Below are positions 4,487 to 23,554 of a DNA stretch of 64,000 bases, piece after piece. The number at the start of each line of letters is the position of its first letter. The stretch's first letter is position 1. Below the pieces are notes generated by a model. The model was not told the DNA's origin, made no database searches, and saw nothing but the letters and a program-made list of their open reading frames with translations. The translations under genes were made by a program, and so were the position numbers. The stretch comes from a virus (lineage: Duplodnaviria > Caudoviricetes): the IMG/VR virus record IMGVR_UViG_3300034062_005355, one strand, 5' to 3'.

Positions 4487-4576
4487 ATGAAAAATTTGAA
4501 CACATTTAATAGAACAGAACCAACACCGGCAAACGACGGATTAGGTAATCTATGCTTATGTTCAGATCTTAAATAA
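4487..4576 (+). CDS. putative leader peptide 1 (29 aa, MKNLNTFNRTEPTPANDGLGNLCLCSDLK)
   Basis: Short ORF whose 3' end contains ATGTTCAG, complementary to the downstream terminator arm. Confidence 0.5.
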   Translation: MKNLNTFNRTEPTPANDGLGNLCLCSDLK

Positions 4577-4600
4577 TGGAATAATAAAAAGCCAAATTTA

Positions 4601-4637
4601 AAAACCCTGAACATAAAAAGTTCGGGGTTTTTTGTTT
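4601..4637 (+). terminator. intrinsic terminator with alternative antiterminator pairing
   Basis: AAAACCCTGAAC / GTTCGGGGTTTT hairpin followed by a U tract. Confidence 0.75.
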
Positions 4638-4688
4638 TATAAGGTTTTTTGATTATCTTTGTAGTGTTCTTTGAAATATGGAAAATAT

Positions 4689-7939: not shown

Positions 7940-7950
7940 AAAAAAAATAT

Positions 7951-7980
7951 TTGACAAATACGAAACTTTTCGTATTATTG
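7951..7980 (+). promoter_or_regulatory. promoter with an internal 9-bp palindrome (possible operator)
   Basis: TTGACA (7951) followed by AATACGAAA-CT-TTTCGTATT (7957-7976), upstream of leader peptide 2. Confidence 0.45.
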
Positions 7981-7996
7981 TAATAATTATAAAACA

Positions 7997-8080
7997 ATGA
8001 GAACATCAATTAAACATATGTCGTCGATTATTAAGCAACAAGAGGTATTCTGTAGCTGGTATCGTCATATGCAAAATTGA
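7997..8080 (+). CDS. putative leader peptide 2 (27 aa, MRTSIKHMSSIIKQQEVFCSWYRHMQN)
   Basis: Its stop codon overlaps AGTTCGG, complementary to CCGAACT in the downstream terminator. Confidence 0.5.
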   Translation: MRTSIKHMSSIIKQQEVFCSWYRHMQN

Positions 8081-8131
8081 GTTCGGATATTAGGTAGTAC
8101 GTTAATAACAAGTTAGAAATAACAAGATATT

Positions 8132-8175
8132 AAAACCCCGAACTTTGAAAAAAAAGTTTGGGGTTTTTTGTTTTT
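8132..8175 (+). terminator. intrinsic terminator with alternative antiterminator pairing
   Basis: AAACCCCGAACTTT / AAAGTTTGGGGTTT hairpin plus U tract; similar in sequence to the 4601 hairpin. Confidence 0.75.
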
Positions 8176-8243
8176 ATCAAACTTTCGTATTACCTTTGTA
8201 TTCACAAACAAGAAGAAAGTTCTTTGACATCTTGGAAAAAAAT

Positions 8244-8317
8244 AGTCCTTTAGCTCAGTTGGTTAGAGCATCTGGTTTACATCCAGAGGGTCGTAGGTTC
8301 GAGTCCTACAGGGACTA
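8244..8317 (+). tRNA. tRNA-Val(TAC)
   Basis: TCTGG-TTTACAT-CCAGA within a cloverleaf. Confidence 0.92.
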
Positions 8318-8324
8318 CACAATT

Positions 8325-8396
8325 GGCCCTTTCATCTATCGGTTAGGATATTAGGTTTTCATCCTAAAAAGACGGGTTCGACTCCCGTAGGGGCTA
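8325..8396 (+). tRNA. tRNA-Glu(TTC)
   Basis: TTAGG-TTTTCAT-CCTAA; Glu-type D arm. Confidence 0.88.
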
Positions 8397-8402
8397 CCGT
8401 AA

Positions 8403-8692
8403 AGTCGGGGAGTAGGTTTTTATGTTGGTTGGTACCTACTCCCCCAGACAAAAAGAAATTGATAATGGTTTTCTCCATTCAACGGATGTCGACAATCCAG
8501 AATGGAATCAGAATTCATCACCCTTTGCTGAGGCCTCATTAAAACTCAGGAAGCAATTAAGATTGGGACGAGACGGGTATCCCAACATTATCAACAATAT
8601 TGTGTTGTTCCTGTGAGATAGGAATGAAATAGTCGGACGTATTTTAAATGTAATACTGTTTGCACAACACAGAGGACTTCTCAACCTCAAAT
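8403..8692 (+). ncRNA. candidate multi-stem ncRNA(s)
   Basis: 11-bp GGGGAGTAGGT/ACCTACTCCCC; TTGATAATG/CATTATCAA enclosing three hairpins; TGTGTTGT/ACAACACA domain. Confidence 0.5.
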
Positions 8693-8694
8693 TT

Positions 8695-8767
8695 GGTGTG
8701 ATAGCTCAGTAGGTAGAGCAGTAGACTGAAAATCTACGTGCCGGTGGTTCGATCCCACCTCTCACCA
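8695..8767 (+). tRNA. tRNA-Phe(GAA)
   Basis: GTAGA-CTGAAAA-TCTAC within a cloverleaf. Confidence 0.93.
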
Positions 8768-8843
8768 CGGAGTCCCGAAATAACGGGAAACCCCCACTCC
8801 CACATGGCAGCCAGTCCGTTAACCTGGTGAAGTGGGGTAAAAT

Positions 8844-8974
8844 GGTCAGGTGGCGGAATTGGTAGACGCTATGTGGTAAAGCTAACCACAAACAAAGCTG
8901 TGACGGACTCAAAAGTACAATGAGTTGAAATAGAAGATTACGCACGGTTATAGGTTCGAATCCTGTCCTGATTA
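8844..8974 (+). ncRNA. tRNA-Leu-like repeat element, copy 1 (131 nt)
   Basis: GGTCAGG-TG-GCGGAATTGGTAGACGC...ATAGGTTCGAATCCTGT-CCTGATT-A with a long structured insert. Confidence 0.8.
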
Positions 8975-8983
8975 CAAAAAAGA

Positions 8984-9015
8984 TTTGGTGAATTAAAATA
9001 TTAAACATATCTTTG
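8984..9015 (+). promoter_or_regulatory. repeated promoter cassette (TTTG-20 nt-TATCTTTG)
   Basis: Near-identical ~45-nt copies at 8978-9021, 9599-9642 and 12387-12430. Confidence 0.75.
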
Positions 9016-9034
9016 TATTGTTAAAAAAATAGTC

Positions 9035-9343
9035 ATGGAAGATAAAAAATCATTAAATAAAATCAAAAGAGAAACGCAATTGTTTTGGCTTGGTGAAAAT
9101 CGCCTTATCAAATGGTCGGATATTAAGCATTTACAATTAGAAGATGATGATGTAATCAGGTCATCATGGGAAGAGGACGATGATGACGGACGCGGGCTCT
9201 ATGTCGGAGAAATCACTAGAATGGTTGAAGAAACTGATGAACAATATCAAAAACGTCTATCTAATAATGAACTACATAATAAATGGGAAAAAGAAAGACG
9301 TTACGAAAGTTATTTAAAACTTAAAAAAGAGTTTGAAGAATAA
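9035..9343 (+). CDS. hypothetical protein within the repeat array
   Basis: ATG ORF after the promoter cassette; ends 6 nt before copy 2. Confidence 0.75.
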   Translation: MEDKKSLNKIKRETQLFWLGENRLIKWSDIKHLQLEDDDVIRSSWEEDDDDGRGLYVGEITRMVEETDEQYQKRLSNNELHNKWEKERRYESYLKLKKEFEE

Positions 9344-9348
9344 AATAT

Positions 9349-9439
9349 AGTCAGGTGGCGAAATTGGTAGACGCAGTCCTCGGGATAATGTCAAGAGGGT
9401 CGCGCCCTCAATTTACAGGTTCGAATCCTGTCCTGGCTA
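9349..9439 (+). ncRNA. tRNA-Leu-like repeat element, copy 2 (91 nt)
   Basis: AGTCAGG/CCTGGCT; D and T arms present; GAGGG-TCGCG-CCCTC hairpin; no canonical anticodon arm. Confidence 0.8.
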
Positions 9440-9504
9440 CAAAGGCAGATTGTTACTAATTCATAGCACCTGAAGAAAGTGGGAATGTCATAGAATTAGA
9501 ATTT

Positions 9505-9594
9505 AGTCAGGTTGCGGAATGTTAATAATTAACTTAGTGCAAGAATTAAGCTAACTAATAGTGGCGAGGAACCACAACTAAGTTAATTATTAAC
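9505..9594 (+). repeat. truncated copy (5' arm only) followed by an 18-bp perfect inverted repeat
   Basis: AGTCAGGTTGCGGAAT, then GTTAATAATTAACTTAGT (9521-9538) / ACTAAGTTAATTATTAAC (9577-9594). Confidence 0.75.
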
Positions 9595-9651
9595 CATAAA
9601 AAAAATTTGGCGGATTAAAATATTATACATATCTTTGTATTGTTATAAAAT

Positions 9652-9737
9652 AGTCAGGTGGCGCAAATGGATGACGGTCAAATAGGAGATAATATCAATA
9701 GGATGAAAGTATACAGGTTCGAATCCTGTCCTGACTA
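9652..9737 (+). ncRNA. tRNA-Leu-like repeat element, copy 3 (86 nt)
   Basis: Conserved ends; identical to copy 5 except for the first base. Confidence 0.8.
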
Positions 9738-9752
9738 CTAAAATTAAATGTT

Positions 9753-9917
9753 ATGGAAACGATTAATATTACAACAGAAGAACTAAAAAAATTAGTTGAA
9801 ACAGCAATTCAATTTGGGATCGATAGTCCTGAATTAGTCCCAAACCAAAAAGGAAGAGAAAAAATTGCAAATTGGATGGTAGATAACACCATTAAAGATA
9901 TAAAAGGACAAAGGTAA
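9753..9917 (+). CDS. hypothetical protein (54 aa) between repeat copies
   Basis: METINITTEELKKLVETAIQFGIDSPELVP..., translated by hand. Confidence 0.6.
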   Translation: METINITTEELKKLVETAIQFGIDSPELVPNQKGREKIANWMVDNTIKDIKGQR

Positions 9918-9923
9918 TAAAAT

Positions 9924-10032
9924 AGTCAGGTGGCGGAATTGGTCACCAAAGTAAGCCGTCTCCAAGCTTTGTGTAAAAGAGATGAATGCCTAATTTGAAA
10001 ACTACTTACAGGTTCGAATCCTGTCCTGACTA
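9924..10032 (+). ncRNA. tRNA-Leu-like repeat element, copy 4 (109 nt)
   Basis: AGTCAGGTGGCGGAATTGGT...ACAGGTTCGAATCCTGTCCTGACTA. Confidence 0.8.
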
Positions 10033-10184
10033 CAAAAATATGAAATTGAAAGGATAAATTACGTAATAGTCCAATCAATCAAGGGTTAACATCTCAAATG
10101 GTATGGATTTAGCGGTCCAAAGAGTATGGCAGGGGTTAACCATCAAAAACTTGGGAACGACCGATATGCCTTCATATTTCTTAT

Positions 10185-10270
10185 GGTCAGGTGGCGCAAA
10201 TGGATGACGGTCAAATAGGAGATAATATCAATAGGATGAAAGTATACAGGTTCGAATCCTGTCCTGACTA
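10185..10270 (+). ncRNA. tRNA-Leu-like repeat element, copy 5 (86 nt)
   Basis: Near-exact duplicate of 9652-9737. Confidence 0.8.
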
Positions 10271-10297
10271 CAAAATTAATAATTTAAATAAACAAAT

Positions 10298-10636
10298 ATG
10301 TTACCAAATTATCATACAAAATTAAATTTTGACGATGTCATAATCGTATCAACTAAAGAATTTCCGGGGATATTTTTTCCGGCTAAGATTGAACAAATCG
10401 TTGAATGTAATTTTATGGATAAAAATTCCATTAAAGTGGGTCGACCTGTTGGTGTTTACTATCAATATAATCTTAGAACCGTTGATTACGAAGATAACCC
10501 ATTTATTAATTTTCCTAATGTAGACACTAATTTCCTTACTTGGGACGAACTAAATAGTTTTGACACTTTGGATAGGTGGGTTGAAAATATGGGTTATTTT
10601 ATGAAAGGTGTGATTAAAATAGAAAAGATTGGATAG
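10298..10636 (+). CDS. hypothetical protein within the repeat array
   Basis: ATG ORF with an A-rich upstream region. Confidence 0.7.
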   Translation: MLPNYHTKLNFDDVIIVSTKEFPGIFFPAKIEQIVECNFMDKNSIKVGRPVGVYYQYNLRTVDYEDNPFINFPNVDTNFLTWDELNSFDTLDRWVENMGYFMKGVIKIEKIG

Positions 10637-10685
10637 AATGAAGTTGGATATTTAGAAAATATATTCTCAAAAATCAAATAAAAAT

Positions 10686-10798
10686 AGTCGGGTGGCGGAA
10701 TTGGTTAGACGCTAAGTGTGGGTTCGTAACCCTTGACCGTCTGGTAACAGATACACAGAGTAACACTCGTACAGGTTCGAATCCTGTCCTGACTACCA
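10686..10798 (+). ncRNA. tRNA-Leu-like repeat element, copy 6 (ends in ACCA)
   Basis: AGTCGGG/CCTGACT; branched insert with GGGTT/AACCC, TCTG/CAGA and GAGT/ACTC hairpins. Confidence 0.8.
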
Positions 10799-10987
10799 AG
10801 TTAACCACACTAAGACTAGAAACGTGGTGACGGATCGGAAAGACGACAAAACTACCACGATGCTTCCCGTAAGATCAGCACTATTTTCAGTGGTGATTTC
10901 TCCACGTAAACGAATAGCCCAAGGCATAAGTTATGGTGGATTACCAAACCTATCCTTAATGGACGCATTAAGTGAAGTTTGGGACAT

Positions 10988-11092
10988 AGTCAGGTGGCGG
11001 AATTGGTTAGACGCTAAACCATTAGAGATAAAATGTAGATTCTCAGTAAGGTAATATACTACATTATACAGGTTCGATTCCTGTCCTGACTA
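10988..11092 (+). ncRNA. tRNA-Leu-like repeat element, copy 7 (105 nt)
   Basis: Conserved ends; unique insert. Confidence 0.8.
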
Positions 11093-11109
11093 CAAAATAA
11101 ATAAAAATT

Positions 11110-11367
11110 ATGGAAAGATTAGTGCTTGATTATACTCATTGTTCTGAACCAGAATGTTGGGAACATAATATTCCTTTTGAATATGAATCAAAAGAGAAAT
11201 TTATATTTGATGTGATTGAATATCCAATGTTACTTAATTCTCTAATTGAATGTGTATATGAATGGATGTTGGATCCGGCTTATGAACATAAGATAGAGTT
11301 ATTAGAAAATATTGATCAATATATTTTTACATTAGATGAATGGTTTGAAAAAAATAAAAAAATATGA
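11110..11367 (+). CDS. hypothetical protein within the repeat array
   Basis: ATG ORF after copy 7. Confidence 0.7.
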   Translation: MERLVLDYTHCSEPECWEHNIPFEYESKEKFIFDVIEYPMLLNSLIECVYEWMLDPAYEHKIELLENIDQYIFTLDEWFEKNKKI

Positions 11368-11594
11368 AAGAAATACTTGAAAATAAAGATGTTGGTGATT
11401 ACGTACATGTTGATGGTTATACATCAATGGCACAACAAAACTTCCGTAAAACATCTATAATTGGAGTTGATTATAAATTTGATCCTGATACAGGTGATAA
11501 ATTTAAAATTCTTCAGATTGATAATGGTGAATGGTTTGATAGCCGGAATGGTGGTTGTTACTCAAATGAAAACTCAATGTATTATATTGAATAG
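11364..11594 (+). CDS. hypothetical protein within the repeat array
   Basis: ATGA overlap; ends 6 nt before copy 8. Confidence 0.7.
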   Translation: MKEILENKDVGDYVHVDGYTSMAQQNFRKTSIIGVDYKFDPDTGDKFKILQIDNGEWFDSRNGGCYSNENSMYYIE

Positions 11595-11600
11595 TTATTT

Positions 11601-11742
11601 AGTCAGGTGGCGGAATATAGACGCAGAAGTTAGAAGAGAGGGATTATCAATGTTGGTTAGTGGATTAATTACCTTGTCTAATGGATTAAATAACACACAC
11701 CAACTATTATGTGTTATACAGGGTTGTATCCTGTCCTGACTA
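11601..11742 (+). ncRNA. tRNA-Leu-like repeat element, copy 8 (142 nt, degenerate T loop)
   Basis: ACAGG-GTTGTAT-CCTGT-CCTGACT-A. Confidence 0.7.
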
Positions 11743-11800
11743 CACTAATTAAGCTAGTTTATGAACAGCCTTTGAGGTGAGATGCTCTCATTAGAATGGA

Positions 11801-11870
11801 AGTCAGGTAACTTAACTGGTAAAGGGGGTTGCGATAGTTTCCGTTACAGGTTCGAATCCTGTCCTGACTA
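11801..11870 (+). ncRNA. tRNA-Leu-like repeat element, copy 9 (70 nt, shortest)
   Basis: Conserved acceptor stem and T arm; altered D arm. Confidence 0.75.
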
Positions 11871-12000
11871 CAAAATTAACTGAGGAACCGAATAAGAAAG
11901 TAGGTAATAAGGTGTGGGATAGTTACGAATAACCACGATGGAAATTGGGATTATAACTCAAGCGTAAATAGGTTATAATTAGTAAGTTAATTTTTTAAAT

Positions 12001-12104
12001 AGTCAGGTGAGCGGAATGGCTATCGCACTGCAAAAACAGTTCTTATTTCGACATAAGATAACCAAGTGAAAGGCACTATACAGGTTCGAATCCTGTCCTG
12101 ACTG
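12001..12104 (+). ncRNA. tRNA-Leu-like repeat element, copy 10 (104 nt, G73)
   Basis: Insert of three hairpins: ACTG/CAGT, TCTTAT/ATAAGA and GTG/CAC. Confidence 0.8.
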
Positions 12105-12165
12105 CAAAATTTTTTTTGTTATTTAATATATTTTTTGTATTTTTGTATCCTAATCAAAAGACAAT

Positions 12166-12387
12166 ATGAAAAGAAAGACTATAAATGTGGATTTAGTGAA
12201 AGAAAAGGTTAATAAGTTATTATCTAATCCAAACATTATAATGGAGGAGAAATTGGGTGTAATAACAATGATTGAGTATGTATTACATGAAACCAACAAT
12301 TATAATGGTTTTATGTATTTAACACTTAATAATGGTGAGGCTCCAAAACTTGGTACTGATGAATGGGTAAGTAGGAAATATTTTTAA
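12166..12387 (+). CDS. hypothetical protein within the repeat array
   Basis: ATG ORF after a TAnnTTTG-like site. Confidence 0.7.
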   Translation: MKRKTINVDLVKEKVNKLLSNPNIIMEEKLGVITMIEYVLHETNNYNGFMYLTLNNGEAPKLGTDEWVSRKYF

Positions 12388-12445
12388 AAAAGATTTGGTG
12401 GATTAAAATATTATACATATCTTTGTATTCCAATAATAAAAAAAG

Positions 12446-12793
12446 ATGGAAAAATTAAGTAAAAAATATAAGACCTATTCTATAACAATGTACCGTAGAG
12501 GTATGGAGTTGGAAGTGATATGTGTAACCACAAGTAAGAAAAAATTTGCCGCGTTATGTGATATGCCCATCTCGAATGTTAATAACCATGGTTACTCATA
12601 TGATTTACGTTATCCAATCTGTAATGAAAATCCAGATAAGTTATACGCAAAACCAGGAATGGGTGGTGAAATAATGTATATCACAGAAAGAGGTGTGATA
12701 AAACCGTTGGAGGACTACATTAAGTTAATTGTCGAACATAGGGAAAAATATAAATCGTATAAAGATTATTTAGAAAAAACAAATCAAAGATAA
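12446..12793 (+). CDS. hypothetical protein within the repeat array
   Basis: ATG ORF after the repeated promoter cassette; ends just before copy 11. Confidence 0.75.
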   Translation: MEKLSKKYKTYSITMYRRGMELEVICVTTSKKKFAALCDMPISNVNNHGYSYDLRYPICNENPDKLYAKPGMGGEIMYITERGVIKPLEDYIKLIVEHREKYKSYKDYLEKTNQR

Positions 12794-12800
12794 AACAAAT

Positions 12801-12890
12801 AGTCAGGTGGTTTAAAGTTGGTTCGACTCCAAGATAGGATATGGTATCGTTGCGATTGGAAATTTACAGGTTCGAATCCTGTCCTGACTA
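12801..12890 (+). ncRNA. tRNA-Leu-like repeat element, copy 11 (90 nt)
   Basis: Conserved ends; insert contains a second T-arm-like hairpin TTGG-TTCGACT-CCAA. Confidence 0.75.
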
Positions 12891-13020
12891 CTGACACGCA
12901 CGGCAGCCGAAATGTAAAAGCGCTCAATGATTAGGCAATGCGAACGAACACACGGTCTACCTCACAGTGCGTAGGTAAGCTTCAAGGATCGTTGACAGCT
13001 CGGAATAGACGAGCAAATTT

Positions 13021-13162
13021 AGTCAGGTGGCGGAATTGGTTAGACTCGCTAATATAGGTATCGAAAGATAGACGATTCTACTCCGCAGGGTCATATTAGT
13101 CTATCCTAAAGTGATATGAGTAGACGCAATAGGAGTTACAGGTTCGAATCCTGTCCTGACTA
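13021..13162 (+). ncRNA. tRNA-Leu-like repeat element, copy 12 (142 nt)
   Basis: Conserved ends; insert closed by CTAATAT/ATATTAG with a TATC-GAAA-GATA hairpin. Confidence 0.8.
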
Positions 13163-13251
13163 CAAAAGTGTTGAGTTCAAATCCCAGTAGGGAAGTTTAT
13201 AAAGTATCTAAATAATAATTTAATTTAAAAACAAAAAAATAACTTACGAAG

Positions 13252-13500
13252 ATGAAAAGTTCAAGTAGTATCATTAATAGACAAAAAGAAATAGATAAGT
13301 TAAGAACAGAGTTGGAAACAATTTTAGCTAAAACTAAACACTTATCTAAAGGTGAAATAGGAACAAAAGGATATAATAAGGTTATAGACGAATTGAAAAA
13401 TAAAATATTAGAACTTGAACAGAGAACTAAATTAGATAGGATTAAAATTGGTGAAGGTGTGGATGATTTAAGTGATAATAGATTTAAAAGATATAAATGA
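13252..13500 (+). CDS. coiled-coil hypothetical protein
   Basis: ATG ORF. Confidence 0.65.
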   Translation: MKSSSSIINRQKEIDKLRTELETILAKTKHLSKGEIGTKGYNKVIDELKNKILELEQRTKLDRIKIGEGVDDLSDNRFKRYK

Positions 13501-13573
13501 TATTACTTCTACCGTTTTGCAGCTACCAGAAGGGCGGGATTTAGAACGATAAACTTTAAATAAAAATAAAATT

Positions 13574-13756
13574 ATGGAAAATAAATGTTATCAAGCAACT
13601 AATGAAGATTTACGTGAATCAGATTTAGAACATTACGAAAAATTATCAACAGAATGTCATCATTGGTCGAGTGGTATTCCAAGAGCAATAAACTTTTACT
13701 ATGATTATAAGAGTATGAGTATATGGGAAAAGATAAAATTAGCATTTAAGAAATAG
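13574..13756 (+). CDS. hypothetical protein; stop codon overlaps copy 13
   Basis: TAG at 13754-13756 shares its AG with AGTCAGG. Confidence 0.65.
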   Translation: MENKCYQATNEDLRESDLEHYEKLSTECHHWSSGIPRAINFYYDYKSMSIWEKIKLAFKK

Positions 13757-13868
13757 TCAGGTGGCAGAATGGTAGATGCATGATGATAAAGTAGGGTTCG
13801 GATGTACTCGGAGGAAATTGATTCAGTTAGGTGTACAACTAATACAGGTTCGAATCCTGTCCTGATTA
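13755..13868 (+). ncRNA. tRNA-Leu-like repeat element, copy 13 (114 nt)
   Basis: AGTCAGGTGGCAGAATGGTAGATGC...ACAGGTTCGAATCCTGTCCTGATTA. Confidence 0.8.
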
Positions 13869-13914
13869 CAAATCTCAGGAGTAATTAATCTGAGACTGAG
13901 TGATTCGAAACACT

Positions 13915-14024
13915 CGATTGATTATGGTGTAATGGCGCACAACACCCCCCGCTGAAGTTCGAGTCTTCAGATTAGGTACGGTAACCAGGGGAGTAAGATT
14001 AAGGTTCGAATCCTTTTTAATCGG
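13915..14024 (+). ncRNA. tRNA-like element on a different (Gln-like) scaffold with an insert in the anticodon loop
   Basis: CGATTGA/TTAATCG acceptor; GTG-TAATGGCG-CAC D arm; ACACCCC/GGGGAGT stem enclosing CTGAAG-TTCGAGT-CTTCAG; terminal AAGG-TTCGAAT-CCTT. Confidence 0.6.
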
Positions 14025-14191
14025 CAATTGGTAGTAAAATGCGTAGGTTGATAAGCGTGGAGAGACGTGACGCAAGGGTACACACTAAGGATAGGTAGTA
14101 ATACCCAACTCTCTAATGGTGTGTGAAGCTGGGCCCAAACTTATGGTCGCTAGGCGGGATTCTTGATAAAGTCAACCACTACCTTTTACAT

Positions 14192-14267
14192 GTTGGCTAT
14201 AGCTCAGTTGGTTTAGAGTGCTTGATTGTGGTTCAAGAGGTCACGGGTTCGACTCCCGTTAGTCACC
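14192..14267 (+). tRNA. tRNA-His(GTG)
   Basis: G-1:C73 pair; CTTGA-TTGTGGT-TCAAG. Confidence 0.9.
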
Positions 14268-14423
14268 CAAATAGGTTGGGATCCCTAGTGGTAGCGGCGT
14301 TAATCATGATAATCAAGCCACAAGTATCTAGTAAGAAGTGACAGATGGGTTCGTCACGACCTAAAAATATTTTTTTGTTAATATGGTATTTTTATGTATA
14401 TTTGTATTCCAAACAATAAACAT

Positions 14424-14819
14424 ATGATCAGACTAAATACAAATTTAAATAATTTAAATCACAGAGAAATTAGAAGAATTGTTGATAAAACAATAAGATA
14501 TAGTGTATTTAAATTTGGAATTAACAAAAGAAAAGGATGTTGTACTGTTGTAGTTAAGAATCAAAGTAAAAACGCCGAAATTCAAAATTTTGGTGAGTAT
14601 AATCCTGATACTAATACTATTTATATCTTTAAAAACAATTGTAAGAATGTTAAAGATGTAATTGAAACAACATTACATGAATATGCCCACACATTACAAC
14701 CAATTGTAAGTAGGTATTATAAAATGTTAAAAACACATGGATATGAAAAGCATCCAATGGAAATCGAAGCAAGAAAACATGAAAAATATTGTAAAGAAGC
14801 TTGGATTTTAATAAAATAA
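14424..14819 (+). CDS. zinc metallopeptidase-like protein (HExxH)
   Basis: TLHEYAHTLQ and HPMEIEAR motifs. Start reassigned to the ATG after the promoter at 14397. Confidence 0.75.
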   Translation: MIRLNTNLNNLNHREIRRIVDKTIRYSVFKFGINKRKGCCTVVVKNQSKNAEIQNFGEYNPDTNTIYIFKNNCKNVKDVIETTLHEYAHTLQPIVSRYYKMLKTHGYEKHPMEIEARKHEKYCKEAWILIK

Positions 14820-14843
14820 TTATTAGGTTTGTACCTATTAAAT

Positions 14844-14933
14844 GGAGAGGTGGCAGAGCGGTCGAACGCGGCGGTCTTGAAAACCGTTTTAGGGGAGACT
14901 CTAACGGGGGTTCGAATCCCTCCCTCTCCGCCA
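14844..14933 (+). tRNA. tRNA-Ser(TGA), CCA encoded
   Basis: GGAGAGG/CCTCTCC; long variable arm; G73-CCA. Confidence 0.95.
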
Positions 14934-15530
14934 AGTAAAGAGAACCGTGAGTCCGCGGATGGAAACAACCATAGGACGATCAAACGTCATACTTTACTTA
15001 AGACCCCACGATTAACGAAAAGTACTTGTTCGTTATGGTGTGTGACCCTGACTTGAAGGCTTCAAGGCTATGGGGGAGGTAACACAGAGTGAAACTTGTA
15101 TAATCTTTCATGAACGAGATTAATTGATTGGGTGAAATTCCGTCAGGTACATTGGAATCTCAAATTAGAAGAGTTCCCCATTATGGATTAAGGGGGTAAG
15201 GGGCTTTAATTAGTCGTAATAGAATCCACAAGTCGTAAGAATACTGAACAATCTTACGGTACACACTCTTCTTCCGAGTGAGACTCACCACGTAACTTTG
15301 GGGGTAGGGTGAAGATGTTCTGAGGATAGCACTGAACGCTATGTTGAAAACTCTATGACAAACCGATTAGATAAGTAAACATGGACGGAGTGTGAAAGTA
15401 CAGACCCACCGTGGATGGTTACTATTGTCTAACAAATCTTAGACATATCGGTGTGGGATACTATATCGCCAAATCTAAAACTTAAAAGGTTCTCTCAAAA
15501 TGGCGTGGGGATGATTTAGAACCTTTTTTT
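14934..15530 (+). ncRNA. candidate large ornate ncRNA (~600 nt)
   Basis: ORF-free and GC-enriched with many helices; long-range pairing CCCCACG (15004)/CGTGGGG (15504); ends in a hairpin plus U tract. Confidence 0.6.
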
Positions 15531-15532
15531 AT

Positions 15533-15604
15533 TGTCACGTAACTCAGCGGTAGAGTTCTTCCCTGATACGGAAGCGGTCATAGGTTCAAATCCTATCGTG
15601 ACAA
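15533..15604 (+). tRNA. tRNA-Ile(GAT)
   Basis: TGTCACG/CGTGACA; CTTCC-CTGATAC-GGAAG. Confidence 0.85.
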
Positions 15605-15610
15605 CACAAT

Positions 15611-15685
15611 GTCTTCGTAGCTCAGTTGGTTTAGAGCACTAAACTTTTAATTTAGGGGTCATGGGTTCGAGCCCCATCGGGGACA
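15611..15685 (+). tRNA. tRNA-Lys(TTT)
   Basis: CTAAA-CTTTTAA-TTTAG within a cloverleaf. Confidence 0.92.
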
Positions 15686-15790
15686 CTACCCTATCAAATA
15701 GTTTAATCCACGGGTAAAAAGAAAACACGGGTCCGAGTACCCGATGGTCTCACCGTAATTGTGGTAATCGGTGAATTGATAAAATATTAA

Positions 15791-15861
15791 GGTCGGTTGG
15801 CCGAGTGGTTAGGCATCGGTCTGCAAAACCGCTTACACAGGTTCAAATCCTGTACCGACCT
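15791..15861 (+). tRNA. tRNA-Cys(GCA)
   Basis: GGTCGGT/ACCGACC; loop CTGCAAA; U73. Confidence 0.93.
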
Positions 15862-15873
15862 CAAAAAAAATAC

Positions 15874-15954
15874 ACGTCAGTGGCCGAGCGGCTTAGGCAA
15901 CAGTCTCCAAAACTGTAAGTTAATTTAACGGGGGTTCGAATCCTTCCTGGCGTG
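15874..15954 (+). tRNA. tRNA with Trp (CCA) anticodon and a class II-like variable arm
   Basis: ACGTCAG/CTGGCGT; ACAGT-CTCCAAA-ACTGT; 13-nt variable region AAGTTAATTTAAC; G73. Confidence 0.85.
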
Positions 15955-15958
15955 CAAA

Positions 15959-16092
15959 GGTTGATTAGGGAATGATTGTACTGATAGTTCGAGAGTGAAT
16001 ACTGACTAGTACAATCGGAGTTGGGAGGTATTCACCTAAGTAATGCTAATCGTAAAAACAGATGTCCACTCGACCATCTTCTGTTTTCCTTA
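15959..16092 (+). ncRNA. candidate double-pseudoknot RNA
   Basis: GATTGTAC/GTACAATC hairpin whose loop GTGAATAC pairs with GTATTCAC; 5' GGTTGA pairs with TCGACC in a 3' hairpin loop. Confidence 0.55.
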
Positions 16093-16095
16093 TTT

Positions 16096-16177
16096 GGGAG
16101 CGTCGCATAGCGGCAATTGCTGCGGACTGTAACTCCGCCCTCTTTAGAGTTCATAGGTTCGAGTCCTATCGCTCCCA
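16096..16177 (+). tRNA. tRNA-Tyr(GTA)
   Basis: GCGGA-CTGTAAC-TCCGC; variable arm present. Confidence 0.93.
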
Positions 16178-16184
16178 CAAAAAT

Positions 16185-16257
16185 TGTCCTGTGGTGTAAT
16201 TGGCAACACGTCTGGTTTTGGTCCAGAAGAGTATAGGTTCGAGACCTGTCGGGACAA
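16185..16257 (+). tRNA. tRNA-Gln(TTG)
   Basis: TGTCCTG/CGGGACA; TCTGG-TTTTGGT-CCAGA. Confidence 0.9.
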
Positions 16258-16261
16258 CAAT

Positions 16262-16336
16262 GGTCTTATAGTTTAATTGGATAAAACATTTTGCTACGGA
16301 CAAAAAGACGTTAAGGTTCGAGTCCTTATAAGACTA
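16262..16336 (+). tRNA. tRNA-Arg(ACG)
   Basis: TTTTG-CTACGGA-CAAAA within a cloverleaf. Confidence 0.88.
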
Positions 16337-16341
16337 CAAAT

Positions 16342-16413
16342 TGCGATATAGCTCAGTGGTAGAGCACTTGATTCATATCCAAGATGTCAAAGGTTCAATT
16401 CCTTTTATCGCAA
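16342..16413 (+). tRNA. tRNA-Met(CAT), elongator-like
   Basis: TGCGATA/TATCGCA; loop TTCATAT; lacks the initiator's three G-C anticodon-stem pairs. Confidence 0.8.
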
Positions 16414-16448
16414 CTTATTTTTTTCCAAATGGAAAGGTATTTATTAGT

Positions 16449-16916
16449 ATGGATAAAATTACGATAAGCAAAGAGCAATTATTTAAGGTAATGCATTTAA
16501 ATGAAGCCGAAAAAAAAGAAACTGCTGATGATATTGCTGAGGATGGGGATATTGTTGATATGATTTCAACATTACTTCATTCAAGAAGTCAGACTCATGT
16601 ATTTCATTGGCAAACAAAATCACAATCATCATTTGCTGAGCACAAAGCCTTACAAAAATATTATGAAGGATTAGATGGATTAGTTGATGGTATTGTTGAA
16701 AGTTACCAAGGTAAAAACGATTTGTTAACAGGTTATAAAACGATTAAAATGGTTGATTATAAGTCAACAGAACAACTAATAACTTACTTTAAAGGATTAG
16801 ATGATAATATTGAAAAAAATAGAAAATCGGTTAAAGAGTCTTTTATTCAAAATCAAATTGATACTGTTCAGGAATTAATTTATAGTACTCTTTATAAATT
16901 GAGATTCTTAAAATAA
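16449..16916 (+). CDS. ferritin/Dps-like four-helix protein (DUF5856-like)
   Basis: THVFHWQT, AEHKALQKYYE and IVESYQGK motifs. Start moved to the ATG after TATTTAT; the ORF-track start lies inside tRNA-Met. Confidence 0.7.
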   Translation: MDKITISKEQLFKVMHLNEAEKKETADDIAEDGDIVDMISTLLHSRSQTHVFHWQTKSQSSFAEHKALQKYYEGLDGLVDGIVESYQGKNDLLTGYKTIKMVDYKSTEQLITYFKGLDDNIEKNRKSVKESFIQNQIDTVQELIYSTLYKLRFLK

Positions 16917-16941
16917 GATAATTTTTTATTAGAAATAATTT

Positions 16942-16976
16942 ATCCCTCTGAGTTTGAAATTCAGGGGGATTTTTTT
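16942..16976 (+). terminator. intrinsic terminator
   Basis: ATCCCTCTGA / TCAGGGGGAT plus T tract. Confidence 0.75.
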
Positions 16977-17001
16977 ATATTTGAATTTAAGAAATTAAAG
17001 T

Positions 17002-17319
17002 ATGTTAAAGAGAAATAGAAAATCATTTCAAAAAATTGTTAAAGAATATAAAGACGCCACCCCATACGAAATATGGGAAGGAGTTAGAGATAATTTCATC
17101 TTTGGATTTATAGGTGCAACCTTGGTTGTGTTCATTGCAACCAAGACAGATTTGGCGGTATTGTTAGGATATATTACCTACTATTTTTTTATGGGTAAGA
17201 TTGTTAACAGACCAAAGTATGTTACCGATTTAGGTAAGATGATTGTGTTTCCAATACCGTCCGCTCTCGGAGCATTTACAGGATATAAATTAACTTATGT
17301 CCTATTAGAATTAATATAA
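17002..17319 (+). CDS. membrane protein
   Basis: Three hydrophobic segments. Confidence 0.7.
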   Translation: MLKRNRKSFQKIVKEYKDATPYEIWEGVRDNFIFGFIGATLVVFIATKTDLAVLLGYITYYFFMGKIVNRPKYVTDLGKMIVFPIPSALGAFTGYKLTYVLLELI

Positions 17320-17322
17320 AAA

Positions 17323-17375
17323 ATTATTAGTGTTCCAAAACTCTATTTTTTTATTAATTTTGGAACACTAATAAT
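17323..17375. repeat. 18-bp perfect inverted repeat
   Basis: ATTATTAGTGTTCCAAAA (17323-17340) / TTTTGGAACACTAATAAT (17358-17375). Confidence 0.85.
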
Positions 17376-17379
17376 ACAA

Positions 17380-17465
17380 GGAAGGTTACCCAAGTTGGTG
17401 AAGGGGTCAGTTTGCTAAACTGATAGGATGTAAAAGTCGCGAGGGTTCGAGCCCCTCACCTTCCG
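17380..17465 (+). tRNA. tRNA-Ser(GCT)
   Basis: GGAAGGT/ACCTTCC; TCAGT-TTGCTAA-ACTGA; long variable arm; G73. Confidence 0.93.
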
Positions 17466-17506
17466 CATAGTTTGACAAAAAGAATTTTAAAAATTATAAT
17501 TAATAC

Positions 17507-23106: not shown

Positions 23107-23166
23107 ATATATAAATATATGGGAAACAAAAAACCCCATCACAAGGACAGGGTTTTATGTTAAATG

Positions 23167-23554
23167 TGGAGTAGCGCGGATTCGAACCGCGGTCTTCCCT
23201 ACTCAATAATAAATGACTACACGTTTAGGATAATGTTTGCTAACATTCCAAAATTCACAATTCCCTTATTTTTAAAGTGGTTCGGTTTACTGAGAACTAA
23301 TCCTCCACTTGTTTCTTTTAGGATAGAAACCACACCCTATAGAGATTTATGTTCCAAGGTTAATATCTCCCCGACCTGAATATAGTTTTGCTTACGCTAC
23401 TTCTACAAGCTCATCTTGTTTTACAAGACCTAATAGAGCCATTTTGTTTAACACGTTGCCGTATAATTGTTATTACCATAGATTTAAGTGATAGGAAACA
23501 TCTCACTACGTGCCACCGATTACAGACATATGAAATCAATTGCCTTTCTACCCC
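23167..23554 (-). ncRNA. ssrA: tmRNA
   Basis: 5' GGGGTAG..GGCAATTGA; 3' CGCGG-TTCGAAT-CCGCG-CTACTCC-A; G3:U70 pair; internal tag ORF at 23460-23392. Confidence 0.93.

Follow-up and report, generated by a model that had tools for sequence, protein, structure and literature searches.

The window is a stretch of 64,000 nucleotides (nt) from a virus of the class Caudoviricetes (Duplodnaviria; IMG/VR record IMGVR_UViG_3300034062_005355). It is part of a T4-like phage, with a gp20-type portal, a gp23-type capsid protein and a T4-type large terminase. The phage is a lake phage of Bacteroidota. The G+C content of the window is 27-40%, and its DNA is also present in lake-water metagenomes. The window contains 25 transfer RNA (tRNA) genes on the + strand between 2.9 and 17.5 kb, plus further tRNA-like units and a transfer-messenger RNA (tmRNA). 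The subject of this analysis is element 2, a short unit at 7950-8175 within the tRNA island. It is probably a ribosome-mediated (leader-peptide) transcription attenuator that senses the decoding of codons of its own tRNA block. It contains the following features.

7950..7980, + strand: leader promoter, with TTTG/TTGACA at 7950-7956 and TATTATTG at 7973-7980.
7997..8080, + strand: leader open reading frame (ORF) of 27 codons plus TGA, with the ATG at 7997 and the TGA at 8078-8080; MRTSIKHMSSIIKQQEVFCSWYRHMQN.
8001..8020, + strand: segment 1, with GAAC at 8001-8004, TCAATT at 8006-8011 and CATATG at 8015-8020; it forms the 5' strand of the ORF-closing hairpin.
8066..8086, + strand: segment 2, with CATATG at 8066-8071, AATTGA at 8075-8080 and GTTCGG at 8081-8086.
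8087..8131, + strand: spacer between segments 2 and 3, which is the antiterminator loop and is partly conserved (AAGTTAGAAATAAC) in alignments.
8132..8175, + strand: intrinsic terminator, with the 5' arm at 8132-8146 (segment 3), the loop at 8147-8152 and the 3' arm at 8153-8167 (segment 4).

Two tRNA blocks lie on the + strand, and each is headed by a leader element.

8244..16414, + strand: tRNA block behind element 2 (block B), which also contains a tRNA-like array and small ORFs.
4487-4576, + strand: leader ORF of sister element 1, with 29 codons and a T-P-A-N-D-G run.
4600-4632, + strand: terminator of sister element 1.

Block B encodes, in order, Val(tac), Glu(ttc), Phe(gaa), Ser(gga), His, Ser(tga), Ile(gat), Lys, Cys, Trp, Tyr, Gln, Arg(acg) and Met. 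The tRNA-Val/Glu/Phe genes and tRNA-like array that had been noted downstream are present from 8244, with Val starting at 8244, Glu at 8325 and Phe at 8695. tRNA-Ser(gct) is located at 17380, past the next terminator, and the tRNAs counted for the element 2 leader span 8244-17466. Element 1 heads block A, which encodes Pro, Asn, Gly, Asp, Thr, Ala, Leu, Arg(tct) and Leu. It was used as a within-genome control for element 2. A simple terminator scan of the first 20 kb retrieved four + strand terminators: those of elements 1 and 2 and those at 16942 and 19068. Between 4632 and 16942, no terminator other than that of element 2 was predicted on this strand. The island is thus split into exactly two units, and each leader spells the tRNAs of its own unit. 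Polymerases coming from unit A would also be gated by element 2.

The strongest evidence for the attenuator reading is the match between the leader codons and the downstream tRNAs, which was absent from the original prediction. After the ATG, the downstream tRNAs can decode 23 of 26 sense codons, and the leader lacks none of the 13 amino acids of the downstream tRNA set. The matches include an adjacent E-V-F (GAG-GTA-TTC) for Val(tac)/Glu(ttc)/Phe(gaa), followed by TGT-AGC-TGG-TAT. The second Arg is CGT, not AGA, for Arg(acg), and AGC is present for Ser(gct). The three unmatched codons are AGA and ACA, which form segment 1, and AAT, which is the last codon. The leader contains no Pro, Gly, Asp, Ala or Leu codons; the tRNAs for these are upstream, behind element 1. 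The element 1 leader holds the run ACA-CCG-GCA-AAC-GAC-GGA plus TTA, CTA and AGA. Counts for leaders 1 and 2 against blocks A and B were 21/7 versus 3/23 (Fisher p = 2.4e-6). Random 26-residue windows of the phage's own proteins gave P = 0.0014 for the observed block-B count and P = 0.0008 for holding all 12 non-Arg block-B amino acids.

Relatives were retrieved from five viral contigs reached through a neighbouring protein and from three pattern scans, of which two covered IMG/VR and the third JGI/ENA metagenome contigs. Neither the scan anchored on the promoter nor the one with both switch positions free was biased for the tested pairing, and together they gave 145 distinct terminator contexts. 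Contexts with a leader ORF and a tRNA no more than 400 nt downstream were counted as family members. There are 119 of these, and 72 are of the element 2 type (MRT..H...QQE.CWY). A distant blastn search of the INPHARED public phage genomes gave tRNA matches only and no relative of element 2.

The codon match is also present across the family. Cognate coverage in 20 non-redundant leaders was 0.673, versus 0.504 +/- 0.027 for shuffled blocks. For the element 2 type alone (9 representatives) it was 0.751 versus 0.678 +/- 0.019 (p = 0.0002). A Lys-rich leader is located ahead of four tRNA-Lys genes. In L039, which is of the element 1 type, the block contains no tRNA-Asp or tRNA-Ala; its leader has no Asp, and Ala only in the C-terminal tail. 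In L022, also of the element 1 type, tRNA-Tyr stands in for tRNA-Asp, and the leader contains Tyr. Relatives in which Leu(taa), Arg(tct) and Leu(tag) form a block apart have a third leader type, MRTTLLHTLLLDRQGLLRRLMP, ahead of it, which uses the codons TTA, AGA and CTA. This type was found at four loci.

L100:4795-4925:-, third leader type.
L102:7726-7854:-, third leader type.
L161:4836-4964:-, third leader type.
L214:1258-1390:+, third leader type.

Leaders of this type (MRTTLLHTLLLDRQGLLRRLMP/R) contain 8-9 Leu codons (mostly TTA) and 4-5 Arg codons (mostly AGA) among 22 codons. The Leu/Arg/Leu block of the window phage has no leader of its own.

The RNA of element 2 contains two mutually exclusive pairings. 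Segment 2 pairs with segment 1 or, as AGTTCGG at 8080-8086, with segment 3. The heptamer is perfectly complementary to CCGAACT at 8138-8144, and A8080 is common to it and the stop codon. The original prediction had placed this heptamer over the stop codon and matched it to the terminator, and it was exact to the base. Segment 1 was defined from minimum free energy (MFE) folds and an inverted repeat. The terminator is strong. Its stem contains 15 pairs, 5 of them G-C, followed by T6GT5, and the T tract runs to 8175. It is conserved in 56/56 aligned relatives (consensus fold). Element 1 contains the counterpart segments TGTTCAG and CTGAACA in the same places.

Both pairings covary among the relatives. 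The switch position is made up of the base after GTTC and the base before GAAC. Family-wide (119 distinct relatives), it was G-C in 61, A-U in 54, G-U in 6 and A-C in 1; eight of the nine A-C cases seen were pattern matches outside the family. Among 56 aligned relatives of the element 2 type, column 99/168 contained G-C in 40, A-U in 13, G-U in 2 and A-C in 1. A second covarying pair of the 2:3 helix, column 94/173, contained A-U in 24, G-C in 12 and G-U in 3. These are direct column counts. They were used instead of RNAalifold, which on the 56 MAFFT-aligned relatives gave the terminator only and had the 1:2 helix out of register. Switches between G-C and A-U recurred within separate subfamilies (L085 versus L070/L050/L064; L090/L032 versus L060/L020; L022 versus other element-1-like leaders). 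The in-step difference between the antiterminator base and the terminator arm of elements 1 and 2, first described as a compensatory change, is real, and such switches are repeated in relatives. Some relatives contain extended perfect 2:3 helices (11 bp in L025 and 12 bp in L062). The 1:2 helix pairs ORF codons 2-5 with bases before and in segment 2, and its compensatory variants include CAAT/ATTG, TACAGG/CCTGTA and TAATA/TATTG.

Duplex energies were also compared after partners were swapped, an alignment-free, anchor-based test. Cognate 2:3 duplexes had a mean of -12.2 kcal/mol, versus -9.6 kcal/mol with swapped partners. Cognate 1:2 duplexes had -9.0 kcal/mol, versus -6.0 kcal/mol when swapped. 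In both cases 0/5000 permutations reached the observed value, and relatedness of the sequences, a point that tells against the attenuator reading, inflates all of these permutation statistics. The repeated independent switches were weighted most.

The position of the stop codon is also conserved. It is -6 to +29 nt from segment 2 in 119/119. The ribosome was modelled as a 27-nt masked footprint in folds of the nascent RNA. With the stop codon in the A site, the 2:3 pairing was blocked in 101/119. With the ribosome at codon 5, it was allowed in 117/119. In element 2 itself, the pairing forms with the ribosome at codons 1-23 and is gone at codons 26-28.

The leader ORF that had been proposed as a 27-codon upstream frame was found at 7997-8080. 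It begins 17 nt past the -7 box of its promoter. The ATG and the Trp codon are separated by a multiple of 3 nt in 71/71 relatives of the element 2 type, with four different lengths (51, 54, 57 and 60 nt). Conserved leader residues use synonymous codons across relatives (TGT/TGC, TAT/TAC and ACA/ACT). The frame is variable 3' of Trp-Tyr. GTTCRG is read as GGT-TCG-GAA in 51 relatives and as GTT-CGG in 20, including the window, and is never lost. The indels before Trp preserve the frame and GTTCRG is kept in two frames, so the N-terminal two-thirds of the ORF look like coding sequence and segment 2 looks constrained at the RNA level. Translation of the ORF is predicted from this coding signature.

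A chance origin would combine a fortuitous short ORF in AT-rich DNA, an ordinary terminator and a random 7-mer complementarity. Short ORFs are abundant, and in a single sequence it is no great rarity for a terminator arm to have a 7-nt complement no more than about 50 nt away. Chance is contradicted, and made scarcely credible, by 119 distinct sequences that share the ORF, the two helices and the context, and in which the pairings covary and the indels preserve the frame.

Element 2 has five features of a ribosome-mediated attenuator: a leader ORF, a terminator, an exclusive antiterminator, stop codon placement and matching codons. The claim of the original prediction that a translation-sensing leader-peptide attenuator stands over the RNA island is supported by the coding signature, the strong terminator, the covarying 2:3 and 1:2 pairings and the placement of the stop codon. 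Its further claim, that element 2 controls the downstream block, is supported by the predicted attenuator features. It does not hold in the sense of a sole gate, since a second transcript source follows the terminator. The features downstream of the terminator are as follows.

8167..8198, + strand: internal promoter of the Bacteroidota type, TTTG-N20-TAccTTTG.
8219..8230, + strand: conserved motif GTTCTTTGACAT, just 5' of the first tRNA.

Sites with TTTG, 17-22 nt and TAnnTTTG are enriched in the window (16 versus 6.0 +/- 2.8 expected), and the + strand of the tRNA island has 9 of them. A TAnnTTTG box is present between the terminator and the first tRNA in 87/119 relatives, versus about 7% expected. 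It is absent after the terminator in 32/119. In 7/119 the first tRNA is 6-13 nt past the T tract (L210:7297-7452:-, L130, L137, L145, L068, L124:8169-8331:+ and L049). This leaves no room for a promoter, and the tRNAs of those seven relatives are thus reachable only through read-through of the terminator.

The 64 kb contain exactly two copies of the 12-mer GTTCTTTGAMAT, at 4666-4677 and 8219-8230, and both lie 3' of an attenuator's internal promoter and 5' of the first tRNA. Many relatives carry it too, past their terminators, and a site for processing, pausing or protein binding is a possible role. The GTTC of GTTCTTTGACAT was considered as a fifth segment that pairs with the terminator arm and was rejected; relatives with a GAACC arm keep GTTCTTTG, with no compensating change.

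The proposed mechanism is as follows. Transcription would start at about 7986, and ribosomes would translate the 27-codon leader. Segment 2 could then have three fates. It could fold back onto segment 1, where the ORF begins. It could pair with CCGAACT, which would hide the loop-proximal half of the 5' arm and hinder the terminator hairpin. It could also be buried inside a ribosome at the stop codon. If decoding is fast, the ribosome would cover segment 2 while the terminator is made; the terminator would fold and the transcript would end at about 8170. If the ribosome is delayed at any sampled codon, segment 2 would be free and the 2:3 pairing would form. Stalling would thereby lead to read-through into tRNA-Val/Glu/Phe and the rest of the block, and a shortage of tRNA may be the natural signal. 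The promoter at 8167-8198 would provide a second, unregulated source. The attenuator would then top up expression and would not be an on/off switch. We read the design as a constitutive promoter with a regulated supplement.

Several further observations weigh against this reading. The near-perfect promoter at 8167-8198 precedes the tRNAs, and a classical attenuator has no promoter after its terminator. Read-through is therefore not the sole source of the tRNAs, which could be made without it. The antiterminator is short, with 7-8 bp over a 51-nt loop, compared with the 15-bp terminator. The full-length MFE fold consists of the 1:2 helix and the terminator. When no ribosome is present, the 2:3 pairing is already favoured in nascent RNA that extends as far as segment 3, both in element 2 and in 77/119 relatives. 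Segment 1 may therefore not be an anti-antiterminator in the style of trp, and read-through could be the default state without translation. The order of the leader residues is conserved beyond the need of a mere codon sampler, as would also be expected of an arrest peptide or a functional micropeptide. In one family member, L139, the switch position holds A and C, which clash (GTTCAG with CCCGAAC). The CCY-for-CWY leaders of L168 and L193 still precede tRNA-Trp. Metatranscriptome contigs (four RNA runs, assembled only) had a depth of 3-4. One of 202 nt spans 8024-8226, across the terminator, and one of 151 nt ends at 8167, though 151 nt is a typical read length. DNA carry-over is possible for these runs. 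These contigs cannot show transcript ends or regulated termination.

The L139 locus (L139:1577-1733:-) also has a weak 1:2 helix and a gap of 121 nt to the first tRNA. It may be a decaying copy. The strict rule that a leader without Trp has no tRNA-Trp behind it was dropped. It is true in L042 and fails in L168 and L193, and single-codon predictions are not strict.

The conserved peptide and the internal promoter would also fit a stand-alone small gene. Such a gene would encode a micropeptide or a structured RNA unit of about 185 nt, its terminator would end it and the upstream tRNA unit, and the tRNAs would be made only from the promoter at 8167-8198. Element 2 does have its own promoter and a strong terminator, and its internal promoter recurs in most relatives. 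Synonymous changes accompany the conserved order and residues of the peptide. As a whole, the unit is well folded, with z = -5.1 and 0/200 shuffles as good (z = -5.4 for element 1). It is also conserved as a unit. Element 2 (7950-8175) is 98.7% identical over 226 columns to L002:5140-5365, on a 182-kb contig, in surroundings where the flanking tRNAs of the two phages are 70-85% identical, the spacers 33-70% and the copies of element 1 about 86%. Very strong multi-layer constraint could account for this island of identity, and so could a recent exchange of the cassette. A stand-alone gene leaves several findings unexplained. They include the match of leader codons to downstream tRNAs, tracked across relatives and leader types, and the covariation of segment 2 with the terminator arm. 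The retention of GTTCRG in two frames, with a C-terminus that is not kept, is another, as are the promoterless tRNAs that abut the terminator in some relatives. The peptides of elements 1 and 2 also had no matches in Pfam or PHROG searches. We consider a stand-alone gene unlikely.

A second alternative keeps the attenuator and changes its signal. It would sense general translation status, or a small molecule or host factor through TnaC- or Erm-like arrest, and the codon match would be secondary. H7 and C-W-Y are conserved at fixed spacing, the preference of ribosome-free RNA for the antiterminator is in line with such a signal, and the geometry suits any cause of stalling. Leaders with unrelated peptides (TPxNGD, the Leu/Arg-run, the Lys-rich L026 and the Ser/Leu/His-rich L140) have only the architecture and the match to their own block in common, which a specific arrest peptide does not predict. 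Leader composition also tracks tRNA content within a type. A signal other than the sampled codons seems quite improbable, and sensing of the block's own codons is preferred.

Element 2 resembles the enterobacterial multivalent attenuators (the ilvGMEDA leader for Ile/Leu/Val and thrL for Thr/Ile) and trpL, hisL and leuL. These likewise contain a short translated leader, an intrinsic terminator and a competing upstream segment. As in these, the position of the ribosome would pick the hairpin in element 2, the regulatory codons would name the scarce item and a leader can carry several kinds of codon (multivalent). The differences are as follows. The genes that element 2 would regulate are tRNAs and not biosynthetic enzymes. 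Up to 13 different amino acids are sampled by its leader, most of them one or two times, and no codon occurs in runs. Its segment 1 is located at codons 2-5 and not at the regulatory codons. Its antiterminator has just 7-8 bp, and a promoter follows its terminator, unlike in the classical attenuators. Its owner is a Bacteroidota phage, and it has no sequence or Rfam relationship to the enterobacterial systems.

Other known systems control the decoding machinery. The pheM leader of Escherichia coli pheST attenuates phenylalanyl-tRNA synthetase and responds to the level of charged tRNA. Like element 2 in the proposed reading, it is a leader-peptide attenuator of a component of that machinery. 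It is cellular and covers one amino acid and a synthetase, whereas element 2 has the tRNA itself as its product and would close a direct feedback loop. The T-box riboswitches of Firmicutes also choose between terminator and antiterminator by the state of a specific tRNA, and they also control translation-related genes. They bind uncharged tRNA directly and need no ribosome or ORF. Element 2 does not contain T-box features or an Rfam match. No Rfam family other than tRNA and tmRNA reached its gathering score in the window. The best sub-threshold matches were driven by the terminator (NsiR1, 31.8 versus 39; PyrG_leader, 26.2 versus 65).

The closest comparison is element 1. It has the same architecture, the GTTCRG / CCYGAAC / GTTYGGGG segments, the downstream GTTCTTTGAMAT and a match to its own tRNA block. 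It differs in its peptide (..TPxNGD..LC..SE versus MRT..H..QQE.CWY), in its tRNA block and at the switch position (A-U versus G-C in element 2). The two elements had been called homologous. This stands for their 3' halves, which align in segment 2, the terminator and the downstream motif, but not for the two peptides, which do not align.

The leader promoter can be read in two ways. It contains TTGACA at 7951-7956, a 16-nt spacer and TATTAT ending at 7978, with 11/12 matches. It is also of the Bacteroidota type, with TTTG at 7950-7953, 19 nt and TATTATTG at 7973-7980. TTTGACAA plus a TAnnTTTG-like box about 16-18 nt 5' of the ATG recur among relatives. The promoter with a palindrome that the first reading of the locus described is present in both parts, the promoter at 7950-7980 and the palindrome, ATACGAAA-CT-TTTCGTAT, in its spacer at 7958-7975. 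The palindrome is confined to the lineage of the window phage (L001/L006, L002/L047 and L200) and is not a family feature. Its possible role as an operator was dropped; it is unconserved outside the lineage, and one 8+8 palindrome per 64 kb of AT-rich DNA is near chance. The palindromic spacer (7958-7975) and the spacer of the next promoter (8179-8192) have AAACTTT(T)CGTATTA in common.

Two other RNA features are present. The array of tRNA-like units at 8844-13868, with a constant acceptor/T-arm end (GGTTCGAATCCTGTCCTGACTACA), sits inside the block that element 2 would gate. These non-decoding RNAs cannot be sensed by a codon-reading leader. The tmRNA gene of the phage is located near the tRNA island at 23164-23554 on the - strand (Rfam RF00023, 54.8 bits). 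It provides another translation-rescue function.

On why phages carry tRNA genes and how these are controlled, current ideas include codon-usage compensation and replacement of degraded or nuclease-cleaved host tRNAs. A full-text literature search found no description of leader-peptide control of tRNA genes. No description of direct feedback from decoding to tRNA gene transcription was found for any cell or virus. Phage tRNA islands may be demand-driven circuits, in which each block is headed by a "codon test strip" that reports the supply of exactly its tRNAs; we offer this wider view as a serious possibility, held a little short of probable. A shortage, whether from host anticodon nucleases, phage-induced decay of host tRNAs or codon-usage mismatch, would cause the block to be transcribed more. 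The leaders would be rewritten as tRNA genes move between blocks.

If this is true, the phage gauges decoding capacity codon set by codon set and adjusts its tRNA supply. Attenuation of the trp/his/ilv kind would then reach RNA genes, Bacteroidota and viruses. A compact, sequence-readable predictor of the tRNAs that form one regulatory unit would be a further gain and would aid operon annotation in uncultured phage genomes. The element could serve synthetic biology as a natural, modular sensor of tRNA availability.

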